Shown here piece after piece: positions 3,811 through 39,048 of a DNA stretch of 51,134 nt. Numbering within the stretch: the first letter of the stretch is position 1; every line of letters begins with the position of its first letter. The notes beneath the pieces are model-generated. The model ran no database searches. It saw nothing but the letters and a program-made list of their open reading frames with translations, and was not told the DNA's origin. This DNA comes from a virus (taxonomy: Duplodnaviria; Heunggongvirae; Uroviricota; Caudoviricetes), in IMG/VR virus record IMGVR_UViG_2724679172_000007. One strand, 5' to 3'. The position numbers were made by a program, and so were the translations under genes.

Positions 3811-6800
3811 TTAATCCTCAAGCAGAGCATCCAGCGACTGGTCATTAATAGTTGTGCTCGCACGTGGTCGCGGCTGCGGCTGCGATGTTTTGACAACATT
3901 ATCCGGATCGCCTTTTGTATTGTTCTTGTTCACATTCAGCAGATCGTTCAGGATAGAGCAGATGTTATCCAGCGCCTTCAACATAGCAGGATCGTTATTT
4001 ATAGTGTCAGTAGTTAATGGTTGTCTTATTCCGCTTCGTGCGAGATCGGTTACAGTAGGGAGTTGTGGCGGCATAGCAAGAAAAGGTTCTTGCACAGCTG
4101 AAGCAGAGCCAAATATGGCGTTATTGGCACCAGTTGCTATTCCCCTAATGCTATTAGCGGTTTGTTGAATCCCCCCATTCAGCCAGTCTCCAACATTTCT
4201 TGTTAATGGGCTAATAGCTCGCGCAATCGCACTATTCTGCCCAGTAGACTGCATTACAAGATCGTTCAATATCCCTGTACTATCAATCCCCCCAACAAGT
4301 CGTGAAAGGTTATCGCCAACGGCAGGAATTACTGCGGTTCCTGTCTGTTTAAGCCCTGACACCGTGGAATCAAATAGCGAACCAAAGAAGCTCTTATCCT
4401 CACCTGTAACCACCTTGTAGCCGTTGTCATAAATCTGCACATCACTTGGTGCCGTGATAGTTCGTTTTCCAGAGGTAACTACTGGCGCAGCTCCCGCCAT
4501 AGCCTGGTTGATTGCCAGAGCCTGCTCCTGCTGTGGAGTTTTCGGTGCTGGCGCTGCAGACGAAAAGCCCGCCATAGCCTGGCTGATTGCCAGAGCCTGC
4601 TCCTGCTGTGGGGTTTTCGGTGCTGGCGCTGCAGACGAAAAGCCCGCCATAGCCTGGCTGATTGCCAGAGCCTGCTCCTGCTGTGGGGTTTTCGGTGCTG
4701 GCGCTGCAGACGAAAAGCCCGCCATAGCCTGGCTGATTGCCAGAGCCTGCTCCTGCTGTGGGGTTTTCGGTGCTGGCGCTGCAGACGAAAAGCCCGCCAT
4801 AGCCTGGCTGATTGCCAGAGCCTGCTCCTGCTGTGGGGTTTTCGGTGCTGGCGCTGCAGACGAAAAGCCCGCCATAGCCTGGCTGATTGCCAGAGCCTGC
4901 TCCTGCTGTGGGGTTTTCGGTGCTGGCGCTGCAGACGAAAAGCCCGCCATAGCCTGGCTGATTGCCAGAGCCTGCTCCTGCTGTGGGGTTTTCGGTGCTG
5001 GCGCTGCAGACGAAAAGCCCGCCATAGCCTGGCTGATTGCCAGAGCCTGCTCCTGCTGTGGGGTTTTCGGTGCTGGCGCTGCAGACGAAAAGCCCGCCAT
5101 AGCCTGGCTGATTGCCAGAGCCTGCTCCTGCTGTGGGGTTTTCGGTGCTGGCGCTGCAGACGAAAAGCCCGCCATAGCCTGGCTGATTGCCAGAGCCTGC
5201 TCCTGCTGTGGGGTTTTCGGTGCTGGCGCTGCAGACGAAAAGCCCGCCATAGCCTGGCTGATTGCCAGAGCCTGCTCCTGCTGTGGAGTTTTCGGAGTAG
5301 AAGGGGATACTTGATCTCCCGGAAGTAGATCAATGATTTCTGTATCGTGATTAACAGTGCGTTTTTGTTGTATGGCTGTTGCGATATCAGCCACTTGAGA
5401 AGCTTTTTTAAATCCAAAAGATTTACCGGTTAAGCCGGATATCTTTTCAGTAAGAGCCTGATCCATTCCTTTCGCTTTTTCGGAAAGCGAAGATATAGAA
5501 CCAAACGAAGTAGCCAACGCAAAATCCTTTACCAGGTCCAGACTTGTTCCAGCAAGGCTGGTAGCCGCGCCGCCAAATAAATTACTTGCACCACTGATTC
5601 CGCTTTCATTTATTGCGATTAACCGCTCAAGCAAACTCGATGGAGAGCCGGTATTAACATCAGCGTTCTCTGGATTAATCGGTTGTGGTTGGTTACCTGT
5701 TTTTTGTGGCTTTTTGACTGCCTGGGCATGTTGTGCAACCTCAATTGGCTGTTGTGTTGCTGTCGGAACGGCATTCAAAACTGGTTGAGCTGGAGATTTT
5801 CCATTAGCATATTTTACCTTGCGACCAACACTATATTGCGAATCGCGGGCAATTAGCTGACCACCATTTTCTTTCTGAATTTTATTAATCCGCGCCAATG
5901 TTTCATCAGAGAATTGCCCCTCCCATCGACCAGTGTTTGTGTTAAATGCTCCAAGTGCGTTCTTAATGAACTCATTATTAACTGCCGGATTTCCGCCTTC
6001 TTTCGTCGCAATTGCACGAACTAATTGCGTCATAACCTCTGGTTTGCTGACATCTATTTTTTCATTAGGCGATACACCAAGATATTTACTGACGTTATCA
6101 ATATATTGGTTAGTATTGTTCTCATTTGGCGGTGCCCATTTTGAAATGATGCTGGATACCGTCTGTAACTTCTGATATCCCGCTGCGGCACTGGTGCCGT
6201 TGTAATAGCTGGAAACCTGGTTTGCCAGTGCCCTGATCCCTTCTTCAGGTGTGTTAAATCGCGCAAAACGTTGTTCACCTTTTGCATTTGGCGATTCCAG
6301 CGTCGCCCCTTCCTGGTTGGCAAAAACAAGATTGCCGAGATTATTATTTCGGTAATTGCGGTTTTTAGCGTTGCTGCCGCCAATATTCAGATCCGCTGCA
6401 ATGGTGTTGTTGGCAGGTGCACTAAATTCAGTTGGAGAAGTATACCCGTGCTCACCAACTCCATCCTCGCCATTACGCCCACCTTGTAATTGTTCACCTA
6501 GAGAATGAATCGCATCGACAGTTTTTTTGGTGCCGTCTTCAACAGCTTTTTTTACTTGTTTCGTGTTTTCGTCAGTGGATAAAAATGTATCCTTAAGGCT
6601 ACCAAAAACAGATTTGGTGATATCTACCGCGCCGTTAACACCACGAGCAATATCTCCGGTATCAAAATTCTGAAGTTTTTCACCTGCTCTTTCAAATCCT
6701 AGCGCAGAAATTCCTTTCCCTATCAAGTTCGTTGCGCCCGACACCAAGCCCCCCATATCGAGCACATTAGCTGTTGCGTAAGCCGTTTTTTGCTGTTCGG

Positions 6801-8391
6801 ATACAGCATCATCGTCACTTAATCCAAAGGCTGCCTTTTGCGCATCTGTATCAGTGTAACCATCTATAGCGTCATATCCCGCCATAGCCAGCGATCCGAT
6901 GATAGGGATAGCTCTTGCAGCTGTAGAAGCAGCTGATTTAACACCTATTTTTGCAGCACTTTTGAGGGCTACGGATTCGGTTTTTTTCTTTGCAACAGTT
7001 TCACCTGTTTTAACTGTGGCCTCTTCGGCAACAACACCTGCTGGCTTAACTGCCTTTGCTGTGTTTTTTGTTTCTTTAGCAATACCCTTAGATGCGTCGC
7101 TTGTGGTGCTGATGTCTTTGGCTTTACTAACCTTTGTTTTAACAGTCTTTGCAGCTCCAGCACCAGCTCCAGCAGCAGCGGTTCCGGCAGCGGCTTTTTC
7201 ACCAACAGAAAGGGCTTTTTTCCCCAGATTGCGACCTTTCCTTTTCGGTTTGTTCCGTTTATTTTTACCAGCCTGATCGCCAATATTGATTTTATTTCTT
7301 CTGCTTGCTCGATTTCTCCAGAGATCACTTAAGCCGAACTTATTCCCAGAAGATACTGATTTGCGTAGCTTAACTACTTCGTCGGAGACATTTTCCAGAC
7401 CATCAATTATTTTGTTGTCATTGGTCTGAAGAATTTTTGTTTGCTCTTCTACTGCTTGTGCTGATTTTGTCTCAACAGCATTATTAAATGCTGTTGCAGA
7501 GGTTGCTTTTTGAGTATTAACCACCGCCGGATAAGTGATAGCTGGAGATGTCGCTTTCGAAGGTGAAGCCTCACCTTTCCCCTTTTCTACCCATTCTTTA
7601 AGAGATTCTGCTTTACCTGTGATCTCTTTAGTAATGTCGTACATGCCGCGAGCAGCCATCCACAACGGACCACCAGCGCCAACACCTGCGGCATCTGTTA
7701 AAGACTCTTCACTGGAAGACTGATTGCCATCTACCCCTATAATGGAGCCTAATTTCCGGAGGAAGCCTTCTTGTAGTTTGGCGTCGGCCTTATGTGCTTT
7801 CTGCCATTCTTTTTTTCTGGCTATATCTTCGTTGTTTTTCTGGGATACAAAGCGTCCGTTACTATCCCGAAGCGGTCCTTTTTGGCTTTGGGGGGATTGT
7901 GGTTCAAGAGGAGCAGAATTAGCGGCTACTGGCACAGAACCTTTCAACTTTTGGGCTGACTGGCGTGATGACGCAAAATGAACGCGCTCTGATGTGTTGG
8001 TTGCAACAATGAGACGTTCTTCTCCGTTGTTGATCTGCGTCCTCCCTTTTTTCATCGGAAGGCGTTTTATATATGGGTTAGCTTGGGTGTTCTTGGCATC
8101 ATCAGAGACATAGGGTTCGCTTGCTATGAGTCTACGGGATAGTCTTTGACTTACTTTACCTTGATTTTCACCAAGTTGAGTTATAGACCCTCTACCAGAG
8201 AGAATGGCGTCTTTGATCTCAGCAAGAGCGTTAAGTTCGTTTGTGCTCGCCCCCTGAATAGCGTCAATTATTGCGATACGGTCTTTATTCTCTTTCAAAA
8301 TAACCTCTCTTTTGCCAGCGGCGATCAACGTTTCCCGGCTTGAGCTTTGTATTTTTCTTCCAGGGCTTTTGACATATGGAGTGCTCGCCAT
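3811..8391 (-). CDS. Tail tape-measure / structural injection protein (P1 Sit-like), with internal 25-aa tandem repeats
   Basis: 1526-aa ORF, Ala/Gly/Ser/Lys-rich and low-complexity; contains about 11 consecutive copies of KTPQQEQALAISQAMAGFSSAAPAP; followed by baseplate genes as in P1 (sit-pmgA-bplA-16-R-S). Confidence 0.6.
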   Translation of the reverse strand: MASTPYVKSPGRKIQSSSRETLIAAGKREVILKENKDRIAIIDAIQGASTNELNALAEIKDAILSGRGSITQLGENQGKVSQRLSRRLIASEPYVSDDAKNTQANPYIKRLPMKKGRTQINNGEERLIVATNTSERVHFASSRQSAQKLKGSVPVAANSAPLEPQSPQSQKGPLRDSNGRFVSQKNNEDIARKKEWQKAHKADAKLQEGFLRKLGSIIGVDGNQSSSEESLTDAAGVGAGGPLWMAARGMYDITKEITGKAESLKEWVEKGKGEASPSKATSPAITYPAVVNTQKATSATAFNNAVETKSAQAVEEQTKILQTNDNKIIDGLENVSDEVVKLRKSVSSGNKFGLSDLWRNRASRRNKINIGDQAGKNKRNKPKRKGRNLGKKALSVGEKAAAGTAAAGAGAGAAKTVKTKVSKAKDISTTSDASKGIAKETKNTAKAVKPAGVVAEEATVKTGETVAKKKTESVALKSAAKIGVKSAASTAARAIPIIGSLAMAGYDAIDGYTDTDAQKAAFGLSDDDAVSEQQKTAYATANVLDMGGLVSGATNLIGKGISALGFERAGEKLQNFDTGDIARGVNGAVDITKSVFGSLKDTFLSTDENTKQVKKAVEDGTKKTVDAIHSLGEQLQGGRNGEDGVGEHGYTSPTEFSAPANNTIAADLNIGGSNAKNRNYRNNNLGNLVFANQEGATLESPNAKGEQRFARFNTPEEGIRALANQVSSYYNGTSAAAGYQKLQTVSSIISKWAPPNENNTNQYIDNVSKYLGVSPNEKIDVSKPEVMTQLVRAIATKEGGNPAVNNEFIKNALGAFNTNTGRWEGQFSDETLARINKIQKENGGQLIARDSQYSVGRKVKYANGKSPAQPVLNAVPTATQQPIEVAQHAQAVKKPQKTGNQPQPINPENADVNTGSPSSLLERLIAINESGISGASNLFGGAATSLAGTSLDLVKDFALATSFGSISSLSEKAKGMDQALTEKISGLTGKSFGFKKASQVADIATAIQQKRTVNHDTEIIDLLPGDQVSPSTPKTPQQEQALAISQAMAGFSSAAPAPKTPQQEQALAISQAMAGFSSAAPAPKTPQQEQALAISQAMAGFSSAAPAPKTPQQEQALAISQAMAGFSSAAPAPKTPQQEQALAISQAMAGFSSAAPAPKTPQQEQALAISQAMAGFSSAAPAPKTPQQEQALAISQAMAGFSSAAPAPKTPQQEQALAISQAMAGFSSAAPAPKTPQQEQALAISQAMAGFSSAAPAPKTPQQEQALAISQAMAGFSSAAPAPKTPQQEQALAINQAMAGAAPVVTSGKRTITAPSDVQIYDNGYKVVTGEDKSFFGSLFDSTVSGLKQTGTAVIPAVGDNLSRLVGGIDSTGILNDLVMQSTGQNSAIARAISPLTRNVGDWLNGGIQQTANSIRGIATGANNAIFGSASAVQEPFLAMPPQLPTVTDLARSGIRQPLTTDTINNDPAMLKALDNICSILNDLLNVNKNNTKGDPDNVVKTSQPQPRPRASTTINDQSLDALLED
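4491..5295. repeat. Tandem direct repeat, 75-bp unit, about 10.7 copies, in-frame within the tape-measure-like gene
   Basis: Unit agcctggctgattgccagagcctgctcctgctgtggggttttcggtgctggcgctgcagacgaaaagcccgccat starts at 4501, 4576, 4651 ... 5251 (period 75); internal copies are identical, the first and last differ by 1-2 nt. Confidence 0.95.
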
Positions 8392-9374: not shown

Positions 9375-9630
9375 AGGGTGATTTTTACACCTTAAGTGAC
9401 GCTACTCACATATCCACAGAGTATTTTTATAAACCTTTTTCCATTTTTAATCCTTTTTAGATCCTTTTTAGGCGTCGCTGGAGCCAGTAGTGGCGCGGGC
9501 TGTAGAGGAGGCTGGTGTAAGATTTGCCCTCAATTAAATACGATCGGTGTAAGATTTGCCCTCAGAAGGTGTAAGATTTGCCCTCAAAAGGTGTAGTAAT
9601 TGCCCTCAAAGTGGTGTAAAAATTGCCCTC
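9375..9630. promoter_or_regulatory. Iteron-type replication origin region (incC-like): DnaA-box-like site, AT-rich stretch with GATC, five 19-bp direct iterons
   Basis: ATATCCACA at 9410-9418 (8/9 match to the DnaA box TTATCCACA); AT-rich 9421-9480; iterons GGTGTAAGATTTGCCCTCA at 9514, 9546, 9568, 9590 (variant) and 9612 (variant) on a 22-bp period, plus an inverted iteron-like copy near 9375-9391; immediately upstream of repA. Confidence 0.7.
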
Positions 9631-9655
9631 ACCATTTGAAGGATCACACAGGGTT

Positions 9656-10411
9656 ATGAACAGAGCGGAATTAACAGCAAAAGCCGTCAGCCTGATTGAG
9701 TCAGCGACACCTATTAGTCGTAGTCTGGCACAAGCCAATGAGATCACGGAGGCTGCTTATCACCTGACTCGCGACCAAAAGCGACTGTTGTTTATTGTGG
9801 TGGGAAGACTTCGCTATGCTTCTAAGGATGGCGTTCTTGGTTCAGGTGCCTGTGAGTTGACGGTCAACGAATATGCAGAGATGTATAATTTGCCCTCTGC
9901 TGAAGCCAGCAAGGATATTCGTAAGGCCATTTCAGGGCTTAGCGAGAAGAAAGTTACGATATATAACCCTGATGAATCGACCGAATCAGAAGACAGTTAT
10001 GAGTCTTATCCCTGGATGATTAAGGATGCCTATTCACCACGGCGCGGGACTTACATTATTCATCTTAATCCATATCTCATGCCGTTTTTTACTCTGCTTG
10101 ATAAGAGATTCACAAGGCTGAATTTTACCGAAGTATCTCGCCTTACAAATCCTTATTCTATGCGGCTTTATGAGTCCTTATGCCAGTACAGGAAGGATGA
10201 TGGAAGCGGCTTTGCCATACTTGGCGTCGAATGGATGCGGGAGCGTTATGGGTTACCAAAAAGCTATCAGCGGTATGCCGAATTTAAGAGAAGTTTTTTA
10301 ACGAAGGCTGTAGCAGAGATTGAAAAAAATACAAAAATGAAAATAGTCTTCTCAGAGGTGACGGAAGGCGGCAAAGTTACCAGGATAAAATTTACCTATC
10401 AGCAGTCTTAA
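9656..10411 (+). CDS. repA: Iteron-binding plasmid replication initiator RepA (Rep_3-like)
   Basis: ORF flanked on both sides by arrays of the same 19-bp iteron; start assigned to the ATG at 9656 just downstream of the last upstream iteron; architecture parallels P1 oriR (incC-repA-incA). Confidence 0.75.
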   Translation: MNRAELTAKAVSLIESATPISRSLAQANEITEAAYHLTRDQKRLLFIVVGRLRYASKDGVLGSGACELTVNEYAEMYNLPSAEASKDIRKAISGLSEKKVTIYNPDESTESEDSYESYPWMIKDAYSPRRGTYIIHLNPYLMPFFTLLDKRFTRLNFTEVSRLTNPYSMRLYESLCQYRKDDGSGFAILGVEWMRERYGLPKSYQRYAEFKRSFLTKAVAEIEKNTKMKIVFSEVTEGGKVTRIKFTYQQS

Positions 10412-15698: not shown

Positions 15699-15765
15699 GC
15701 TGGTTCTTATCCTCTAAAGCGAGAGAACGAGGCAAGGCTGCCCACGGTTAATGGGCAGCCTCTGA

Positions 15766-16044
15766 TCAGGATTCGCTTACCGTGAAGGTATCGCCTACGG
15801 TTACTTCTTTCGTAGTTGGTTCAACACTGACGGTGCTTACGCTTTTATGTGCCTCCCTAACAGTGACTGTGCACTGTGCGGTTTTATTGCCGTCATTTGT
15901 TTTGATTGTCAGCACTGCCTCCCCGGCCTTAAGAGCGGTACATGTAGTGCCATCAACCTGGACAATATCAGGGTGGTCTGACTCAACAGTGAAAGATTTG
16001 TCTGTTGCGTCAGGTGGCGTGATAGTTACTTGAATGTTTGCCAT
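15766..16044 (-). CDS. Bacterial Ig-like (Big_2-type) domain protein, probable virion decoration protein
   Basis: 92-aa ORF with a Thr/Val-rich beta-strand pattern typical of Ig-like domains; strong SD (GGAGAAAAAATG). Confidence 0.5.
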   Translation of the reverse strand: MANIQVTITPPDATDKSFTVESDHPDIVQVDGTTCTALKAGEAVLTIKTNDGNKTAQCTVTVREAHKSVSTVSVEPTTKEVTVGDTFTVSES

Positions 16045-16190
16045 TTTTTCTCCTGGACGCCCCTTAATCAGGGGCGTGTTTTTGCCTTACTTCTGCTTTG
16101 TTTTTTTCTGTGCCTTTGAAGTGTTCGCGGCGATAGTTTCACCTTCATCTACGTCAAGTGACGTTGGTGATACCGACACGTTCGCCACCA

Positions 16191-17888
16191 TCACTTTTTT
16201 TCGTTAACCTTGCCTGTCAGCATGTCGATAGCACCTTCTTTGGCACGAGTCAGACGCAGGCGGGTGAAGTAGTTTTCACCGTTGCGAGGATGTACTTCGT
16301 TGATGGCACTGCCCCAGAGAGTGGTACGGTTAACGAGAGACGGATTGGTTTCGTGAACGTAAGGGATTGCTGGGACTGCATCACCAGCAATCAGACCGGC
16401 TTTACCGATGCCTTCGCCACGCCCATAGAAGAAGATGTCATCCAGCCCGAAGTCATATCCCTGTGCCAGGAATTGCTCACAGACAGGTTGCGGCACTTCG
16501 TAAATACGAATCGTGCCAAACAGGGTGCCGATGTACTGTACATACGGCGACTGAACGTAACCTGGTGCGATCTGGAAGTGCTGTGGAGGCAGAGAGCGCA
16601 GGAAGTTCGCGGCGTCACTACCAGCAAAGCCGCCACGAATACCCGTTGTCAGGGTACGATTTGCCATTTCTTGAGACAGAGCGTTTACTGCGTGACGCAG
16701 GAGGCCGACCCAGGACTCATAGTTTTGAGCTTCCGGCAGAGCCACATCAAATTCACGACCATAAACGGTATGGAATACCAGGGTGCGCAGACGCATGATG
16801 TCGGTTTCATGGGAGATCCAGTTACGCATCGCGGAGAACTGAAGTGCCGCTAATTCAAGGCCGTGCTCACGGCTTAAATCGGATGCGGACATTACCGTGT
16901 GTTCGGAAGCAAGTACGTACTGGGACGGACGAACTTCGTACTTACGCATAGCCTGGTTGATCACAGGAATCAGGCTTGGATTGCGCTCGATGTTAATTTC
17001 GACCTGAACAGCAATTTCAGTACCTTCTGGCGGAGCCTGGGTAAATGTAATGTCAATGACACCAGTGTCATAGGCAACTTTGGCAGTCGCTGAGAAAGCT
17101 TTACCTTTGCTGTCTTTAGCATTGAAATAAAGGTTGCCATCGCCGTCGTCAACTTTGGACGGTTTGCGGTTGATCAGCAGTTTGTTATAACCAGCGCGAA
17201 GCGGGCAGGATTGTCCCTCAAAATTTTGGATGTCGAACTGGAAGGTTTTGGTGCTGCCATCCCCTTTAGTGGAAAGGGTATACAGGCGCTTCATTTGAGA
17301 ATAAACACCAGCTGACTGCATATTCAGTTCGTCACCTTGTTTGAAGGTGCCGAATTTTGTGCCTGCTACGTTGACCAGTTCATAAATATTTGACTCGTCA
17401 CGATCACAAGGAACAAAAGTACAGGCATCACTGGTAGCAGCGCCCAGAGAGGCAGGCAGAATTAGAGCAGCATATTGAGCAACTTTCATTACGCCGTCAG
17501 AGCTACGCATTGATTGCGCGACAGACTCAAACATTGCCTTACCCGTGCCTTCGTGGGTATCACTGGCACATTCAGTCATTAGGCGTTCAAGAGCCATGTG
17601 TGCGTTCGCCAGGATGTCACTTGCCGGGTAATGACCATGTTGACGTTTATACTCATGCAGAGACATAGCCCACCCACCAGTGATCTGACGAGCGACCTCT
17701 GGATTTACGCCTTCAAACATAGGCACTTTCTGGATTGCTTTATCCAGGTTTTCCATCATTACTGCCTGGTCAGCAATCATGTTGCCTGCTGCATCGGTGG
17801 TCGGATCGACGGTCATAGCCATGACGCTTGCCGCCCGATTCATAATCTCGCGCTCGCGATCACGAGCTGGCTGAATGTTTTTATTCAC
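16191..17888 (-). CDS. Major head protein-like structural protein
   Basis: 565-aa ORF at the head of the minus-strand structural operon; size matches the P1 gp23 precursor; preceded by a promoter-like TTGACT and the AAATCACAAA element. Confidence 0.4.
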   Translation of the reverse strand: MNKNIQPARDREREIMNRAASVMAMTVDPTTDAAGNMIADQAVMMENLDKAIQKVPMFEGVNPEVARQITGGWAMSLHEYKRQHGHYPASDILANAHMALERLMTECASDTHEGTGKAMFESVAQSMRSSDGVMKVAQYAALILPASLGAATSDACTFVPCDRDESNIYELVNVAGTKFGTFKQGDELNMQSAGVYSQMKRLYTLSTKGDGSTKTFQFDIQNFEGQSCPLRAGYNKLLINRKPSKVDDGDGNLYFNAKDSKGKAFSATAKVAYDTGVIDITFTQAPPEGTEIAVQVEINIERNPSLIPVINQAMRKYEVRPSQYVLASEHTVMSASDLSREHGLELAALQFSAMRNWISHETDIMRLRTLVFHTVYGREFDVALPEAQNYESWVGLLRHAVNALSQEMANRTLTTGIRGGFAGSDAANFLRSLPPQHFQIAPGYVQSPYVQYIGTLFGTIRIYEVPQPVCEQFLAQGYDFGLDDIFFYGRGEGIGKAGLIAGDAVPAIPYVHETNPSLVNRTTLWGSAINEVHPRNGENYFTRLRLTRAKEGAIDMLTGKVNEKK

Positions 17889-18020
17889 GGTTAAGCCCTA
17901 AATTCGGGCGCGGCGTGAAGGTTCTTTTGACGGGCTAACAATACCTACTTTGTGATTTAGTCAATAGGTTTAGTAAAATAAAATCTATTAACACACATGT
18001 TGTTATGTGGTTTAATTTTA

Positions 18021-22303: not shown

Positions 22304-22546
22304 TGCCTTAATGGTGCCTAATTGGTGTTTATCTGGCACCAGTTAGGTGCTGTTATGGTGCGGTTTTGTATCTGGTTCCAATTTGGGGCTGATTTCGTGT
22401 TAAATAGGATGCAATATAAGGTGTATTTGGTCTGATTGATGTTATACTTTGCCAAACATTCATGACTCCATTATAGAGCCTGTCCCGCATCAAAAAGGCT
22501 CTTATCTGGAACCGTTTTGATACCAAAATCACACCGAGGAACGGAT

Positions 22547-23188
22547 ATGATTATATTGGTAGTCAGCCAAAAAGGTGGCTGTGGAAAATCAACCACAAGC
22601 GTAAACATCTGTGCGGAGCTTGCCCGCGCAAATAAGGATGTAGTGTTACTAGATGCAGACAAGCAAGGAACAGCTGCCCGCTGGGCAGCTGACCGTAACA
22701 CGGCAGAGGTTTCTCCTGTAATTCATTGTGTCCAGAAGTTTGGTAATATTCGAGAAACACTTCTCGATCTGGATAAGCGTTATGAATTTGTTGTTGTTGA
22801 TACAGCCGGGCGCGATAGCAAAGAGATGCGTACAGGCATAACCGCTGCAGATATTGTGTTGGTCCCATTCAGACCATCTCAACCAGATTTAGACACGCTG
22901 GCACACTTTGTTGAAGTGTTTGAAGAGGCTTTGGACCTGATGCCTAATCCTAGCATTAAGGCGTTCGCAGTCTTAACAATGGCCCCATCCAATCCGGTTG
23001 TGAATGAAACCAATGAGGCCAAAGAGTACCTGGCTGAATATCCGCAACTGAAGTTGCTGAAAACCATCATTCGTGATCGTAAGGTTTACCGCGATTGCAT
23101 GGCTGAAGGGAAGGGCGTTGTTGAGATGGACAACGGGAAAGCTAAAGGTGAAATCCAGATGTTGGTTAAGGAGTTATTAAGTGATTAA
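22547..23188 (+). CDS. parA: Small Walker-type partition ATPase (ParA/ParF-like, type Ib)
   Basis: Deviant Walker A QKGGCGKST near the N-terminus (start set at the ATG at 22547, 6 nt after a GAGGAA SD); about 214 aa, typical of type Ib ParA. Confidence 0.75.
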   Translation: MIILVVSQKGGCGKSTTSVNICAELARANKDVVLLDADKQGTAARWAADRNTAEVSPVIHCVQKFGNIRETLLDLDKRYEFVVVDTAGRDSKEMRTGITAADIVLVPFRPSQPDLDTLAHFVEVFEEALDLMPNPSIKAFAVLTMAPSNPVVNETNEAKEYLAEYPQLKLLKTIIRDRKVYRDCMAEGKGVVEMDNGKAKGEIQMLVKELLSD

Positions 23189-23468
23189 GCCTCGTAAATC
23201 GGTAAAAGCCCCCGAAGTAAAAGACCCCGATCTTGAACGCCGAATTGAGGATTTTGCAAGTAAGGCTGATTTGGTGCCGGGTGAGCAACCAGAAGACAAC
23301 AAAGTGCTCGATAAGGACGCTCCACGTGATTTTAAATCTATTCGTGTTGGTTTCAATGAATACGAGTACCAGGTACTTGATGCGTTGAGCAAAAAGCATA
23401 ATCGCAGCAAATTGAATATGATCCGCCATGCTATCCTCATGTTAGCGGAGTCTGAGGAAGCAAAATAA
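23181..23468 (+). CDS. ParG-like ribbon-helix-helix partition protein
   Basis: 95-aa basic/acidic small protein, GTG start overlapping the parA stop (GTGA); C-terminal region compatible with an RHH fold. Confidence 0.5.
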   Translation: MIKPRKSVKAPEVKDPDLERRIEDFASKADLVPGEQPEDNKVLDKDAPRDFKSIRVGFNEYEYQVLDALSKKHNRSKLNMIRHAILMLAESEEAK

Positions 23469-23508: not shown

Positions 23509-23560
23509 CAAAGGTGCACCAATACACCACTAATTTGGTGCACCTTTACATCCTTTTTGG
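23509..23560 (+). terminator. Inverted repeat/terminator downstream of the par operon (possible second centromere-like site)
   Basis: Arms caaaggtgcacc / ggtgcaccttt with a 16-nt loop, followed by a T-run (cctttttgg); the GGTGCAC core also occurs upstream of parA. Confidence 0.45.
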
Positions 23561-23736
23561 TTCCAATTGTGTACCATTTGTCATTAATTTACTTATGCGC
23601 AAAAGTGGGCTTCATGAAAAAGCTCATTATTGAAATAACGATAGAAAGTAATTTCTAATCAACTAGTGGTTGTCAGCCTATTCGGCTTATAAGATCATAC
23701 GCTGTTATACGTAGTTTACGCTTTGAGGAATCCACA

Positions 23737-25354
23737 ATGAGTGAGGCAGAAGCCCGCCCGACTAACTTTATTCGTCAGATCATCGATGAAGATCTGGCCA
23801 GTGGTAAGCACACCACAGTACATACCCGTTTCCCGCCGGAACCGAATGGCTATCTGCATATTGGTCATGCGAAATCTATCTGCCTGAACTTCGGGATCGC
23901 CCAGGACTATAAAGGCCAGTGCAACCTGCGTTTCGACGACACTAACCCGGTAAAAGAAGATATCGAGTACGTCGAGTCGATTAAAAACGACGTTGAATGG
24001 TTAGGTTTTCACTGGTCTGGCAACATCCGTTACTCCTCCGATTATTTTGACAAACTCCATGCCTATGCTGTTGAACTGATCAACAAAGGCCTGGCGTATG
24101 TTGACGAACTGACGCCGGAACAGATCCGCGAATACCGCGGCACCCTGACGCAGCCGGGTAAAAACAGCCCGTACCGCGACCGCAGCGTTGAAGAGAACCT
24201 GGCGCTGTTCGAAAAAATGCGTACCAAATTCACCGTTTATCGTGATGCGCGATCCGGTGCTGTACCGCATTAAGTTTGCTGAACATCACCAGACTGGCAA
24301 CAAGTGGTGCATCTACCCGATGTACGACTTCACCCACTGCATCAGCGATGCGCTGGAAGGTATTACGCACTCTCTGTGTACGCTTGAGTTCCAGGACAAC
24401 CGTCGTCTGTATGACTGGGTACTGGACAACATCACCATTCCTGTTCACCCGCGCCAGTACGAATTCTCGCGCCTGAATCTGGAATACACTGTGATGTCCA
24501 AGCGTAAGCTGAACCTGCTGGTGACCGACAAGCACGTTGAAGGCTGGGATGACCCGCGTATGCCGACCATTTCCGGTCTGCGTCGTCGTGGTTACACTGC
24601 GGCTTCTATTCGTGAGTTCTGCAAACGCATCGGCGTGACCAAGCAGGACAACACCATTGAAATGGCGTCGCTGGAATCCTGCATCCGTGAAGATCTCAAC
24701 GAAAACGCGCCGCGCGCAATGGCGGTTATCGATCCGGTGAAACTGGTTATCGAAAACTACCAGGGCGAAGGCGAAATGGTCACCATGCCGAACCATCCGA
24801 ACAAACCGGAAATGGGGAGCCGTCAGGTGCCGTTTAGCGGTGAGATTTGGATCGACCGCGCCGATTTCCGCGAAGAAGCTAACAAGCAGTACAAGCGTCT
24901 GGTGCTGGGTAAAGAAGTGCGTCTGCGTAATGCTTACGTCATTAAGGCAGAACGCGTGGAGAAAGATGCCGAAGGCAATATCACCACCATCTTCTGTACT
25001 TATGACGCCGACACCTTAAGCAAAGATCCGGCAGATGGTCGTAAAGTGAAAGGCGTTATTCACTGGGTGAGCGCGGCACATGCGCTGCCGGTTGAAATCC
25101 GCCTGTACGATCGTCTGTTCAGCGTGCCGAACCCTGGTGCTGCGGAAGATTTCCTGTCGGTGATTAACCCGGAATCGCTGGTGATCAAACAGGGCTTTGC
25201 TGAACCGTCTCTGAAAGACGCGGTAGCGGGTAAAGCATTCCAGTTTGAGCGTGAAGGTTATTTCTGCCTCGACAGCCGCCATTCTACGGCGGAAAAACCG
25301 GTATTTAACCGCACCGTTGGGCTGCGTGATACCTGGGCGAAAGTAGGCGAGTAA
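23737..25354 (+). pseudogene. glnS: Glutaminyl-tRNA synthetase gene (glnS) disrupted by an internal frameshifting indel
   Basis: The N-terminal ORF (23737..24273; HIGH motif in [12 protein letters not shown]) and the C-terminal ORF (24188..25354; VMSKR motif) are consecutive GlnS pieces in different frames; the frame breaks at 24223-24232, where 10 nt (accaaattca) replace roughly 57 nt of the wild-type sequence as recalled. Confidence 0.8.
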
Positions 25355-25400
25355 TTTTAAGTTCAGTTAGGTTAATAGGTATTTCGCCACATAAAAAAGT

Positions 25401-25427
25401 AAACGCCGCTACTGCGGCGTTTTTTAC
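25401..25427. terminator. Bidirectional rho-independent terminator (glnS / dam convergent)
   Basis: Hairpin cgccgc-tact-gcggcg with an A-run upstream and a T-run downstream. Confidence 0.65.
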
Positions 25428-26329
25428 TTCATTATTGCAATTATATCGTTAGCAACTACACGTGTTGACGCCTTGCAGGACACCGACCGTCTGGCTGCCA
25501 TATGATGTACTTTAAACCCGTTTCCTTCATATAGTTCACGGATGTTTGGCGCACCACTATTTGTTATCACTACCTTAGCGCCGCGCTGGTGGGCTTCCAC
25601 CAATAGAGATACCAGCCGTTTCTGTTCGTCGAAACGGAAGCTATTTCCTGAATAACTGGTAAACCCTTCTGTATCCGGCAGCGGTTCATACGGCGGATCG
25701 CAAAAAATCACATCGCCTTCACCAGCCGCCTCGATGACGCCAGCAAAGTCACCTGATACAAAGGACGTGTTTTTGAGTACGTCATCAGCCAAAAATGCCT
25801 CCATCTCTGCATGTGGGAAGTAGGGCGCTTTGTATTTGCCATACCCCACGTTGAACTCGCCATTTTGGTTGTACCGCGTTACGCCATTAAAACAGTGCCG
25901 ATTAAGGTACAAAAAGGCGGCAGCATGATGTAGCTGGTCATACTTTCCTCTGTTAAATGCCTCACGCACTTCGAGGTAAGCGTCAGCGTTGTTGTAATTT
26001 TGGAAAAAACTATATGACAGCGTGACGAGCGAATGTCCTTCTCGCTGCAATGTCTGATAGAAGTTAATCAGGTCACCGTTAATATCATTAAGCAGGTTGT
26101 GGCAAAATCCTGCATTCGTAAATACGGAACCGCCACCAACGAATGGTTCTATTAACCGCTTACCGTGTGGTAGATGCTCAAGCACTGTAGGCAATTCTGA
26201 GAATTTACCACCTACCCATTTGAATATCGGACGCTCATATTCATCTGGAGTCCGAATGGTGCGCATATAGCTAATTTCAGCCATCGTATCCTGTTTTTCT
26301 ATGGCTATGCTTGCTATAGATTTACTCAT
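25424..26329 (-). CDS. dam: DNA adenine methyltransferase (Dam-like, D12-class N6-MTase)
   Basis: Contains the DPPY catalytic motif and an FVGGGSV-type SAM-binding motif; start set at the ATG at 26327-26329, preceded by an AAGGGGG SD and placed 2 nt after the upstream gene's stop. Confidence 0.75.
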   Translation of the reverse strand: MSKSIASIAIEKQDTMAEISYMRTIRTPDEYERPIFKWVGGKFSELPTVLEHLPHGKRLIEPFVGGGSVFTNAGFCHNLLNDINGDLINFYQTLQREGHSLVTLSYSFFQNYNNADAYLEVREAFNRGKYDQLHHAAAFLYLNRHCFNGVTRYNQNGEFNVGYGKYKAPYFPHAEMEAFLADDVLKNTSFVSGDFAGVIEAAGEGDVIFCDPPYEPLPDTEGFTSYSGNSFRFDEQKRLVSLLVEAHQRGAKVVITNSGAPNIRELYEGNGFKVHHMAARRSVSCKASTRVVANDIIAIMK

Positions 26330-27002
26330 AGAGCACCCCCTTATTCGCTTCGAAAACTGCCTTTGCGAATCCATGTGGAGTAGCACTTCGAAAATTAGCC
26401 CTGTCAGGCCCTGGTGGCGCGGCATGGATTCTGTTATCTGGCTTGCCTAATGATTCGTCCATTAGGGCATCAGGCATGACAAAGCCCTGGCCGCTCCAGA
26501 GGCATGTTTTTTTGGTGTAGTTATCTTCCTGACAATATGCAGTGAAGAAGTAAGGGTGAAAGATGTGATCTGGCTTACGCCAGAATGTCGATATTTTGCT
26601 GACCGGATTTTCAATCATGTACGGACAACCGATCATCTTTGCAATGTCATAACACTGCCAGACAACCTGCATTGCTTTGAACTGGAAAACCGGATCTTTA
26701 TTAGCCTTGTCCGAAAACCAGCGCGCGCCGGAAACAGCCAGGTCAGTACACGGTGGGAACCCGGCCAGAAACACGATGCGCTGCAAATTCTTACGGAGAA
26801 AAGCGTATACTTCATCGCTATCGATGATCGCACTAATACGCGTCAGAACGGCACCTGATTGCATCCGCTCGTCACTGGTCGATAAGTGCTGTGGATCGAC
26901 GATAGCGGCATCGACACCGTATTCCAGCCAGGGGGCAACCATTGCCCCCGTAAAATCACAAAGACTCACAACAAGCGGTCGGTTATTATCGTTCTGCTTC
27001 AC
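26322..27002 (-). CDS. Putative DNA cytosine-5 methyltransferase-like protein (short, atypical)
   Basis: [12 protein letters not shown] resembles C5-MTase motif IV (GGPPCQxFSxAG) and IENP resembles motif VI (ENV); only about 226 aa, so the target-recognition domain seems absent; tightly coupled to dam. Start uncertain (GTG 27002 or upstream). Confidence 0.4.
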
Positions 27003-27891
27003 CGCCAATGGCCTCCACCAGCGCGTTAAACAGTGCAGATAATTCGCCCGTAAAGAGCACGAAATCAGCATCAAATCGTTGTGCTACATCCTCCCGGTCG
27101 ATATCGTCATTCTGGTCATAGAGATCATCACAGAATGTCAGGGCTTTGATACTCATATCATCGTTGACTCTGAACGACGCGCGTTCCATCCAGTTAATTG
27201 CAACGGTCGTAGCTACTTTCCCCGCCTCAATGTGAGACATAATCTCGTCGGACTGTAGATCAACTTTGTTGCAGCGAACGGCACCACCATTATCGAGCAG
27301 ACCCTTTAATGTGGCGTCTTCACCTGCTGTAAATCCGGCAGGGAAGCCGCTTTTAAACCACTCGGTCATTGTAATTTCCAGCGGTTCGCGTGGTGTGAAT
27401 GGAATGACAGGCAGGCTGCTGAGCGATTTTCGCAATAAAGCCAGCTGGTCCTCTGCCTTTTTGGCGCTGCTTGCCTCAACGAATACCAGATGGTTGCTGC
27501 GGTCGATCAGGATTTTGGCAAGTGATTTTCTCGTGAACGCGCGAGGCAAAAGTGAATGCAGGACTTCATCTTTAAGACTGTCTCTTTCCGTTTTCTTCAG
27601 CTTGCGGGCTTGCTCTTCTTCGAGTTTCAGGACTTTTTTCTGCAACTCTTCCTTGAGCACCTGCGAGGGGAGAATTTTTTCTTCTCGCTTATGCTGTATT
27701 AGCAGAAAACCCTGGTATTCATGGGTGAGGTTGTCACCAAGAACGGAGGTCCAACCAGCTTTAGCCATATCCTGAGAACCGCATGGGGTAAACACAAACT
27801 TGCTAAGGGCTGCATTTACTTCTGCAGTATCCCAGCTAACTTCGCGTGAAAGACGATAGATGAAGATATTTTTGAAAGCGACTGATCTCAT
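26986..27891 (-). CDS. rdgC: Recombination-associated protein RdgC
   Basis: 301 aa; segments [81 protein letters not shown] match E. coli RdgC as recalled. Confidence 0.8.
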
Positions 27892-38738: not shown

Positions 38739-39048
38739 ATTGGCAGCCTCCTTTGACTAAGTTAAGGAGCTACCGCGTGAGGTTCCAATCTCAATGGCGG
38801 TAGCACTGACTGGGTTGGAACTACCGGCGTCAAAGGGAACCGGCCTGCCTTTCGGCAGCCCAGCCAGCACTACCATTGATCTCTGAGCTAAACGCTACGT
38901 ATGGCTGTGCGATGGCATGACACAAAAAAGACGCTTTCGGCGTCTGTGTCGCCTTTGACATTATCCGGGGTTCCAATCCCGGCACCCGTTTTTCTAAGGT
39001 GCCGTAGAAATATACCCCACGATAATGCCAGGGCGCAACAGTCAGTAT

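Follow-up and report, generated by a model that had tools for sequence, protein, structure and literature searches.

[quoted passage not shown] Phage D6 itself belongs to the family, as do plasmid prophages of the D6 type, for example pYU39_89 (Gilcrease & Casjens 2018, as cited in PMC6799933), and in D6 the gene is orf62, annotated in GenBank as glutaminyl-tRNA synthetase. It is regarded as a moron with a possible role in fitness or maintenance, an idea modelled on the cysS gene of plasmid pBT1 (PMC6799933). In Salmonella Typhimurium D23580 the pBT1 copy of cysS is reported to stand in for the chromosomal gene, which is down-regulated (Canals et al. 2019, as cited in PMC6799933).

We analysed the glnS locus of an IMG/VR virus record (IMGVR_UViG_2724679172_000007), whose entire 51,134 nt we call the window. 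Its glnS is split by a deletion that we found in no other sequence. We think it probable that this gene is a recent loss-of-function pseudogene, made by a private complex deletion in what would be redundant, ancestral glnS cargo of a D6-like phage-plasmid.

The glnS locus of a D6-like element

Its sequence and gene order place the window within a D6-like (P1-related) phage-plasmid. It matches about 90-100 closed plasmids and phage D6 at 97-98.6% identity across 24-25 kb; the related closed plasmids are ~90 kb in size, non-mobilizable, and come from E. coli, Salmonella and Shigella. The genes follow the same order as in D6, p95_MLI121 and pEC213_2: parM/stbB, a parA-like gene, orf61, glnS on the plus strand, convergent dam, and rdgC, with baseplate/tail genes next (Table 1). 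The orf61 equivalent had no Pfam match. Other viral glnS loci (L011 and L015-L019, at 48-85% aa identity) lack D6-like flanking genes and are for that reason uninformative on the family.

Table 1. Features in and around the glnS gene of the window (strand given relative to the sequence as presented)
Feature	Coordinates	Strand	Basis and remarks
ParA-like P-loop ATPase gene, D6 orf60 equivalent	22517..23188	+	Pfam AAA_31/CbiA/ParA; collinear with D6 orf60 and the p95_MLI121 AAA ATPase
Small partner gene of the ParA-like gene, D6 orf61 equivalent	23181..23468	+	ORF list; position as D6 orf61
Segment homologous to the E. coli chromosomal glnS locus	23666..25364	+	Promoter, 5'UTR, CDS, stop and 10 nt beyond
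Predicted glnS promoter, brought with the gene	23670..23698	+	TTGTCA, 17-nt spacer, GATCAT; consensus scan; aligns with the K-12 upstream region
N-terminal fragment ORF	23737..24273	+	GlnRS residues 1-163, then 15 out-of-frame residues and a TAA stop
Lesion	24223..24232	+	Alignments and SNP table; junction absent from the collections searched
In-frame glnS remainder	24230..25354	+	Residues S181-E554, VMSKR, native stop; first in-frame ATG at 24245
Chromosome-type tract inside plasmid glnS	24601..25364	+	Left limit between 24509 and 24661
Chromosomal C-terminus (..AKVGE*) and 10 nt of chromosomal 3' flank	25341..25364	+	24 nt; alignments
Predicted bidirectional intrinsic terminator hairpin	25401..25422	.	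9 bp, T-runs on both sides; between convergent glnS and dam; two-strand terminator scan
Dam-type N6-adenine DNA methyltransferase gene, D6 orf63 equivalent	25424..26329	-	Pfam PF02086 MethyltransfD12, E=5e-56; convergent with glnS

The window shares the left junction of glnS and both flanking genes with D6 virion DNA and, across three genera, with over 100 closed plasmids, which argues that the capture of the gene was ancestral and that the contig is collinear. The 180 nt upstream are identical or almost so in 12 D6-like sequences. The initial annotation had recognised a host-type glnS in the element, which alignment to K-12, D6 and p95_MLI121 bears out. It had also thought such a gene unexpected for a phage-plasmid backbone; this we revise, as glnS is a published feature of the family (PMC6799933), is D6 orf62, and is encoded by 98 PLSDB records at at least 99% aa identity to the p95_MLI121 protein (tblastn). 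The glnS of D6-like elements is an already known family hallmark, here privately pseudogenised and recombinant.

Alignment to enterobacterial glnS loci, which had also been proposed at the outset, defined both the extent of the captured segment and the position of the indel (Table 1). In a three-way alignment that included K-12 704300-708000, similarity to K-12 starts at ~23655-23669 and stops 10 nt past the glnS stop codon, and no sequence of the chromosomal neighbours nagE or chiP was found around the window's glnS. The -10 element of the promoter holds a Dam site (GATC, 23693-23696), and a Shine-Dalgarno sequence, GAGGA, lies at 23725-29 upstream of the glnS ATG (23737). Dam methylation is reported to repress the chromosomal glnS promoter (Plumbridge & Soll 1987, as cited in PMC11741368). 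The window's copy thus resembles E. coli chromosomal glnS in having carried the Dam-sensitive promoter along; it differs in being phage-plasmid-borne and frameshifted, in lacking residues 164-180, and in a transcript that would end at an element terminator. That terminator had initially been counted as part of the host gene, but chromosomal homology stops at 25364, before the hairpin, which has no homology to the K-12 glnS downstream region and is identical in D6-like relatives. The hairpin is element DNA, predicted to serve glnS and dam alike.

The lesion and its predicted consequence

The norm for glnS in the D6-like family is one uninterrupted 553-codon ORF. In the window the ORF list instead gives two on the plus strand, the N-terminal fragment (178 aa), which carries the HIGH motif, and an ORF at 24188-25354, which carries VMSKR and ends at the native stop codon (TAA, 25352-25354). 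The second is a mechanical ORF, covering the C-terminal part from a TTG at 24188. An antisense ORF at 24230-24796 (minus strand) has no Pfam match, and we treat it as a chance ORF.

Alignment to D6, p95_MLI121 and the K-12 chromosome places the onset of the lesion directly 3' of GAAAAAATGCGT, whose last base is 24222. The 10 nt that follow in the window, ACCAAATTCA, occupy a site at which every aligned reference (phage D6, p95_MLI121, K-12 and other D6-like plasmids) has 57 nt, GCCGGTGGTTTTGAAGAAGGTAAAGCCTGCCTGCGTGCGAAAATCGAYATGGCTTCR. Replacement of 57 nt by 10 nt is a net change of -47 nt and shifts the glnS reading frame by +1. Two of the ten filler bases are ordinary polymorphisms: the A at 24223 (codon 163 ACC) is a natural variant seen in a D6-like IMG/VR contig (L009) and in the chromosome of E. 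coli CFSAN061763, and TTCACCG (24229-24235) is the K-12 allele in the SNP table. The minimal description of the lesion is therefore AAA replacing 50 nt (codons 164-180). The window retains GlnRS residues 1-163 and 181-554 and has lost 164-180, 17 residues in all. The retained parts differ from K-12 GlnRS (b0680; PDB 1o0b, 1gtr) at 5 residues (V97I, Q106K, I112V, A163T and D486E); the D6 protein matches E. coli GlnRS (PDB 1o0b) over residues 1-553, with six substitutions.

Comparison of the whole gene revealed zero further stops or frameshifts outside the lesion, and the window has 0 differences from p95_MLI121 across the 486 nt 5' of the lesion and 2 across the 368 nt 3' of it. Given this near-identity and the lack of further stops, the lesion looks like a recent event. 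The initial annotation, which had read a 57-for-10-nt replacement at 24223-24232 and a net 47-nt loss splitting glnS, was exact to the base, and its remark that the gene bears no other lesions, as fits a recent event, agrees with the undamaged state of the rest of the gene. It had further described HIGH and VMSKR fragments as separate, otherwise intact ORFs; both fragments are present, but the two-piece enzyme that this implied is at odds with the loss of 17 residues and with the lack of a Shine-Dalgarno-like motif in the 20 nt before 24245.

Repeat and template scans suggested no simple mechanism for the deletion. Neither a second copy nor a reverse complement of the filler was found above chance in the window, and the breakpoints in the intact sequence have no direct or inverted repeats and no useful microhomology. 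Nearby repeats comprise a 7-nt TTGAAGA and imperfect 18-nt ones, neither located at the breakpoints. Two specific candidates were set aside: a simple microhomology deletion between two ACC triplets would remove 57 nt in frame, which differs from the observed lesion, and a programmed frameshift would call for signals that we did not find in 24188-24273, where there is no slippery heptamer and no prfB-like +1 site.

The lesion junction appears to be private to the window, being absent from the plasmid, E. coli, phage, viral, genome and metagenome collections searched. BLAST searches of PLSDB and of 5,426 E. coli genomes gave no collinear match to it. A 76-nt query spanning the lesion matched 116 PLSDB records and, among the matches listed, all were in two pieces spanning 123 nt, which means that those records are intact; the top-scoring records of E. 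coli RefSeq and of the phage collection were likewise two-piece and intact. Exact scans of genome, viral and metagenome contigs did not find the junction, and an exact look-up of the 178-aa stub protein found no record. In relatives the gene is whole: among the matches listed, 59 of 60 PLSDB records have a single uninterrupted 553-aa GlnS match, and glnS is intact in all nine full-length IMG/VR loci (9/9) and in D6, p95_MLI121 and pEC213_2. The exception, plasmid unnamed2 of E. coli 2013C-3250 (NZ_CP027382.1), resembles the window in its D6-like context and in carrying a frameshifted glnS, annotated as a pseudogene; it differs in that its lesion, rather than a 47-nt complex deletion, is a frameshift of 1 nt, and lies close to the end of a linear, unfinished contig of uncertain quality. 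dN/dS of glnS was ~0.02 in all comparisons.

The lesion divides the PF00749 catalytic domain (314 positions), of which the N-terminal fragment keeps 2-137 and the C-terminal part 158-313, while 138-157 are absent. HIGH and VMSKR are both present, in different reading frames, and the anticodon-binding domains PF03950 and PF20974 are complete in the C-terminal part. Residues 164-180 lie in what we take, from the E. coli GlnRS-tRNA structure (Rould et al. 1989), to be the acceptor-binding insertion of the Rossmann fold. No purine-rich, Shine-Dalgarno-like motif was found in the 20 nt upstream of the ATG at 24245, nor before the GTG at 24242 or the TTG at 24188. With residues 164-180 gone and the downstream 374 codons lacking translation start signals, we infer that the plasmid glnS copy is a null allele whose fragments are inactive.

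Of 5,426 complete E. coli genomes, all but one (5,425) had at least one glnS match, and the matches fell at 5,428 places on chromosomes. Judging from this count over all E. coli genomes, plasmid carriers appear to keep a chromosomal glnS too. A null plasmid allele would then be tolerated because the host chromosome supplies GlnRS.

Plasmid-type and chromosome-type sequence in one gene

The glnS of the window changes allele type along its length. From 23737 to ~24600 it is plasmid-type, differing from p95_MLI121 at 2 of 854 nt and from the CFSAN061763 chromosome at 29; from ~24601 to 25340 it has 6 differences in 740 nt from that chromosome against 10-26 from D6-like plasmid alleles (5'/3' contrast in allele type, Fisher p=4e-4). 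Taken up to 25364, the 3' tract shows 6 mismatches in 765 nt to E. coli chromosomes such as that of CFSAN061763. When 24600-25372 served as the query, chromosomes were the best matches, at 99.2% identity, and the match ended exactly at 25364. This pattern shows a recombinant gene, plasmid-type in its 5' two-thirds and chromosome-type in its 3' third, and with it exchange with a host glnS. The D6 gene is also mosaic, its 3' third being K-12-like (7 differences in 740 nt, versus 24 from p95_MLI121; p about 1e-4). Mosaics in both the window and D6 show that plasmid and chromosomal glnS exchange sequence repeatedly. For the plasmid-type 5' part, dS against chromosomal alleles is 0.17-0.19, compared with ~0.10 between two chromosomal alleles (codons 1-290), and this higher value fits an old acquisition rather than a recent one.

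Overall, the window's gene is like glnS of D6 and its relatives (orf62) in position, left junction, promoter and terminator, and in 5' two-thirds that are 0-2 nt apart from p95_MLI121 and D6. It is unlike them in its broken ORF, in its chromosome-type 3' third, and in having kept the chromosomal protein end ..AKVGE* and 10 nt beyond.

The right end of the gene sets the window apart in a second way. The family-type end reads ..TGGGCGA followed directly by AGTTAGGTTAA (protein end AKLG*), whereas the window has 24 more nt, of chromosome type, before AGTTAGG. All other D6-like sequences examined are without these 24 nt (25341-25364), their proteins ending in ..AKLG*, and the window's 3' junction was absent from PLSDB, viral_contigs and genome_contigs. 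The 24-nt tail would be either a retained ancestral state or the product of a secondary exchange. An ancestral tail is favoured by the D6-type end being exactly the window sequence minus 24 nt; a secondary one is favoured by the 24 nt missing from every other D6-like sequence checked.

Rival readings and the meaning of a broken copy

We suggest that a family ancestor acquired a near-exact copy of an Escherichia glnS together with its own promoter, and that a recent complex deletion in one element then replaced 50-57 nt by 3-10 nt (net -47) inside the catalytic domain. The retained promoter and Shine-Dalgarno sequence would now yield only a 178-residue N-terminal stub; the dead plasmid copy would be tolerated, the chromosome supplying GlnRS, and exchange with the host glnS would have given the gene its chromosome-type 3' third.

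The one serious rival, given a ~97% identical repeat and chromosome-type alleles both at the lesion and in the 3' third, is an artefact of assembly or polishing: the real glnS would be intact, and chromosomal reads mixed into the consensus would account for the loss of 47 nt, and perhaps for the chromosome-type 3' third and 24-nt tail too. As a repeat shared by plasmid and chromosome, glnS does break short-read assemblies, and nine IMG/VR contigs (L013, L020-L027) end inside it. Both structural differences from the closest relative, pEC213_2, over 24 kb are located in glnS, both junctions (lesion and 3') are unique among the collections searched, and the chromosome-type alleles at 24223, at 24232 and across 24661-25364 form a pattern that mixed read pile-ups could yield. 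The only other broken plasmid glnS found, described above, has a 1-nt frameshift close to where an unfinished contig ends. However, apart from the two glnS indels, the window aligns to pEC213_2 without a gap for ~24 kb, which argues that it is not a noisy assembly, and a 50-nt deletion with a 3-nt filler is atypical of consensus errors. Both junction sequences are foreign to the two parental types and would therefore not arise by simple mixing of reads or by a switch of path in a de Bruijn graph, and mosaic glnS alleles are known in finished genomes too, such as D6 with its K-12-like 3' third. We consider an artefact unlikely.

A second possibility, which we regard as doubtful, is that the glnS copy acts as a portable 1.7-kb homology at which D6-like phage-plasmids repeatedly recombine, and perhaps transiently integrate, at the host glnS, so that the 3' third, the alleles at the lesion site and the lesion itself would be scars of one exchange. 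What the sequence offers for such a role is the mosaicism of the window and D6 alleles; integration, or a lesion arising in the same event, is not among it.

Some class I synthetases tolerate splitting, and the HIGH- and KMSKS-containing halves might reassemble into a functional two-piece enzyme, or the stub might act alone, for example by binding tRNA-Gln or ATP. The halves are undamaged ORFs with their signature motifs, and the in-frame ATG at 24245 stands 26 nt upstream of the stub's stop codon, which makes coupled re-initiation conceivable. We nevertheless find either role very improbable: no Shine-Dalgarno-like sequence lies in the 20 nt before this ATG, the gene has lost 17 catalytic or acceptor-binding residues beyond mere separation, and the split is private, ~100 relatives keeping a single 553-aa ORF with dN/dS ~0.02. 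In a naturally split synthetase each piece would have its own start signals and the split would be conserved without loss of core residues; here the second piece has no such signals, the allele is private and the residues are gone.

The initial annotation had also raised a recent capture of host DNA, left over from transduction or recombination, and a contig chimeric between plasmid and chromosome. Both can be dismissed as barely credible: identity to chromosomal glnS is 95-99% in essentially all E. coli genomes, and the gene's 3' third, stop codon and 10 nt beyond are closest to chromosomes, but the window has its left junction, terminator and both neighbours in common with D6 virion DNA and over 100 closed plasmids, it is collinear with numerous independent finished molecules, the flanking nagE and chiP are absent, and the 5' two-thirds are a distinct plasmid-type allele at the dS from chromosomes given above.

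If the window's glnS is indeed a recent pseudogene in ancestral cargo, it bears on the comparison with pBT1. Like pBT1 cysS, this glnS duplicates, on an extrachromosomal element, the gene for an essential aminoacyl-tRNA synthetase; unlike it, the plasmid copy is here the broken one, and so cannot be the essential copy in its host. The plasmid-addiction model drawn from pBT1 cysS requires a functional plasmid copy and a chromosomal copy that is silenced or lost; the copy in the window is frameshifted, and 5,425 of the 5,426 E. coli genomes had a glnS match.

Taken alone, a private pseudogene carries little weight, and its modest value is that of a natural knock-out; the locus also gives a practical warning for the assembly of glnS in D6-like elements. 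The contrast between ~100 relatives with intact glnS (dN/dS ~0.02) and one or two with a broken gene is striking. If the sequence is right, the element persists with a dead glnS, and plasmid carriage would not require the gene in at least one host. The mosaic alleles show, in addition, sequence exchange between a host gene that is essential and its copy on the phage-plasmid, which bears on how these elements interact with the chromosome.

Interrupted glnS in related elements

Besides the window's own copy, the sole disrupted D6-like glnS among the matches listed was that of NZ_CP027382.1 (34676-36336; 4677-6337 in locus L032), which carries a 1-nt frameshift, is annotated as a pseudogene, and lies close to one end of a linear contig of 36.5 kb that is unfinished. 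Nine D6-like viral contigs from IMG/VR (L013 and L020-L027) have contig ends that fall within glnS, showing that the gene, as a repeat shared by plasmid and chromosome, is a routine break point in short-read assemblies.

Repeats and RNA matches outside glnS

The 75-nt repeat within the Sit-like transglycosylase ORF differs in copy number from both the closest relative, plasmid pEC213_2, and phage D6. The 22-nt array lies directly 5' of the RepB-family ORF and overlaps its start; the array probably represents the iterons of the plasmid's replication origin. Directly downstream of the parA-like/orf61 operon is a perfect inverted repeat, identical in D6, in which the palindrome GGTGCACC occurs twice. 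This repeat might terminate the operon or act as a binding site of centromere-like type. The region containing C4 and isrK (38793-39002) is a P1 immI-type immunity region, 5' of icd/ant-like genes.

Sequence features of the window
Feature	Position	Strand	Details
Sit-like transglycosylase ORF	3811-8391	-	1526 aa
75-nt tandem repeat	4493-5295		10.7 copies, 99% identity; within transglycosylase ORF
22-nt repeat	9546-9631		~3.9 copies; GGTGTAAGAATTGCCCTCAAAA
RepB-family replication initiator ORF	9623-10411
Perfect 13-bp inverted repeat	23510-23547		AAAGGTGCACCAA / TTGGTGCACCTTT; 12-nt loop
Captured glnS promoter	23670-23698		GATC retained within -10 element (GATCAT)
24-nt tract	25341-25364		restores chromosomal GlnRS C-terminus; adds 10 nt chromosomal 3' flank
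C4 antisense RNA	38793-38880	-	Rfam, 77 bits, over gathering score
isrK	38924-39002	-	Rfam, 63 bits, over gathering score

The glnS promoter and methyltransferase module

Dam repression of the chromosomal glnS promoter is reported in PMC11741368. The captured promoter retains a GATC in its -10 element, and the convergent neighbor of glnS is an element-encoded Dam-type methyltransferase gene (25424-26329); this arrangement suggests that plasmid glnS could escape repression on under-methylated, newly replicated DNA. The methyltransferase module varies among relatives (window 25424-27074 versus p95_MLI121 15751-17907): in the window, as in D6, the Dam-type ORF is distinct from the ORF of a putative cytosine methylase, whereas p95_MLI121 has a single fused Dam-family gene of 2157 nt, and dam of pEC213_2 is a truncated pseudogene.

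Mosaic glnS alleles

At the 3' end of the window's glnS, the 24-nt tract is absent from all other D6-like sequences checked, and the junction GAGTAATTTTAAGTTCAGTTAGGTTAAT had no match in PLSDB, viral_contigs or genome_contigs; the tract may be either ancestral or secondary. Phage D6, the source of locus L001, was grown on K-12 C600.

Allele comparison revealed that glnS in D6-like elements mixes plasmid-type and host-chromosome-type tracts: the 3' third of the window's gene (24601-25364) is nearest to E. coli CFSAN061763-like chromosomes, and that of D6 (L001 7249-7988) is K-12-like. Such mosaic alleles imply that an essential host gene, glnS, and its phage-plasmid copy recombine again and again.
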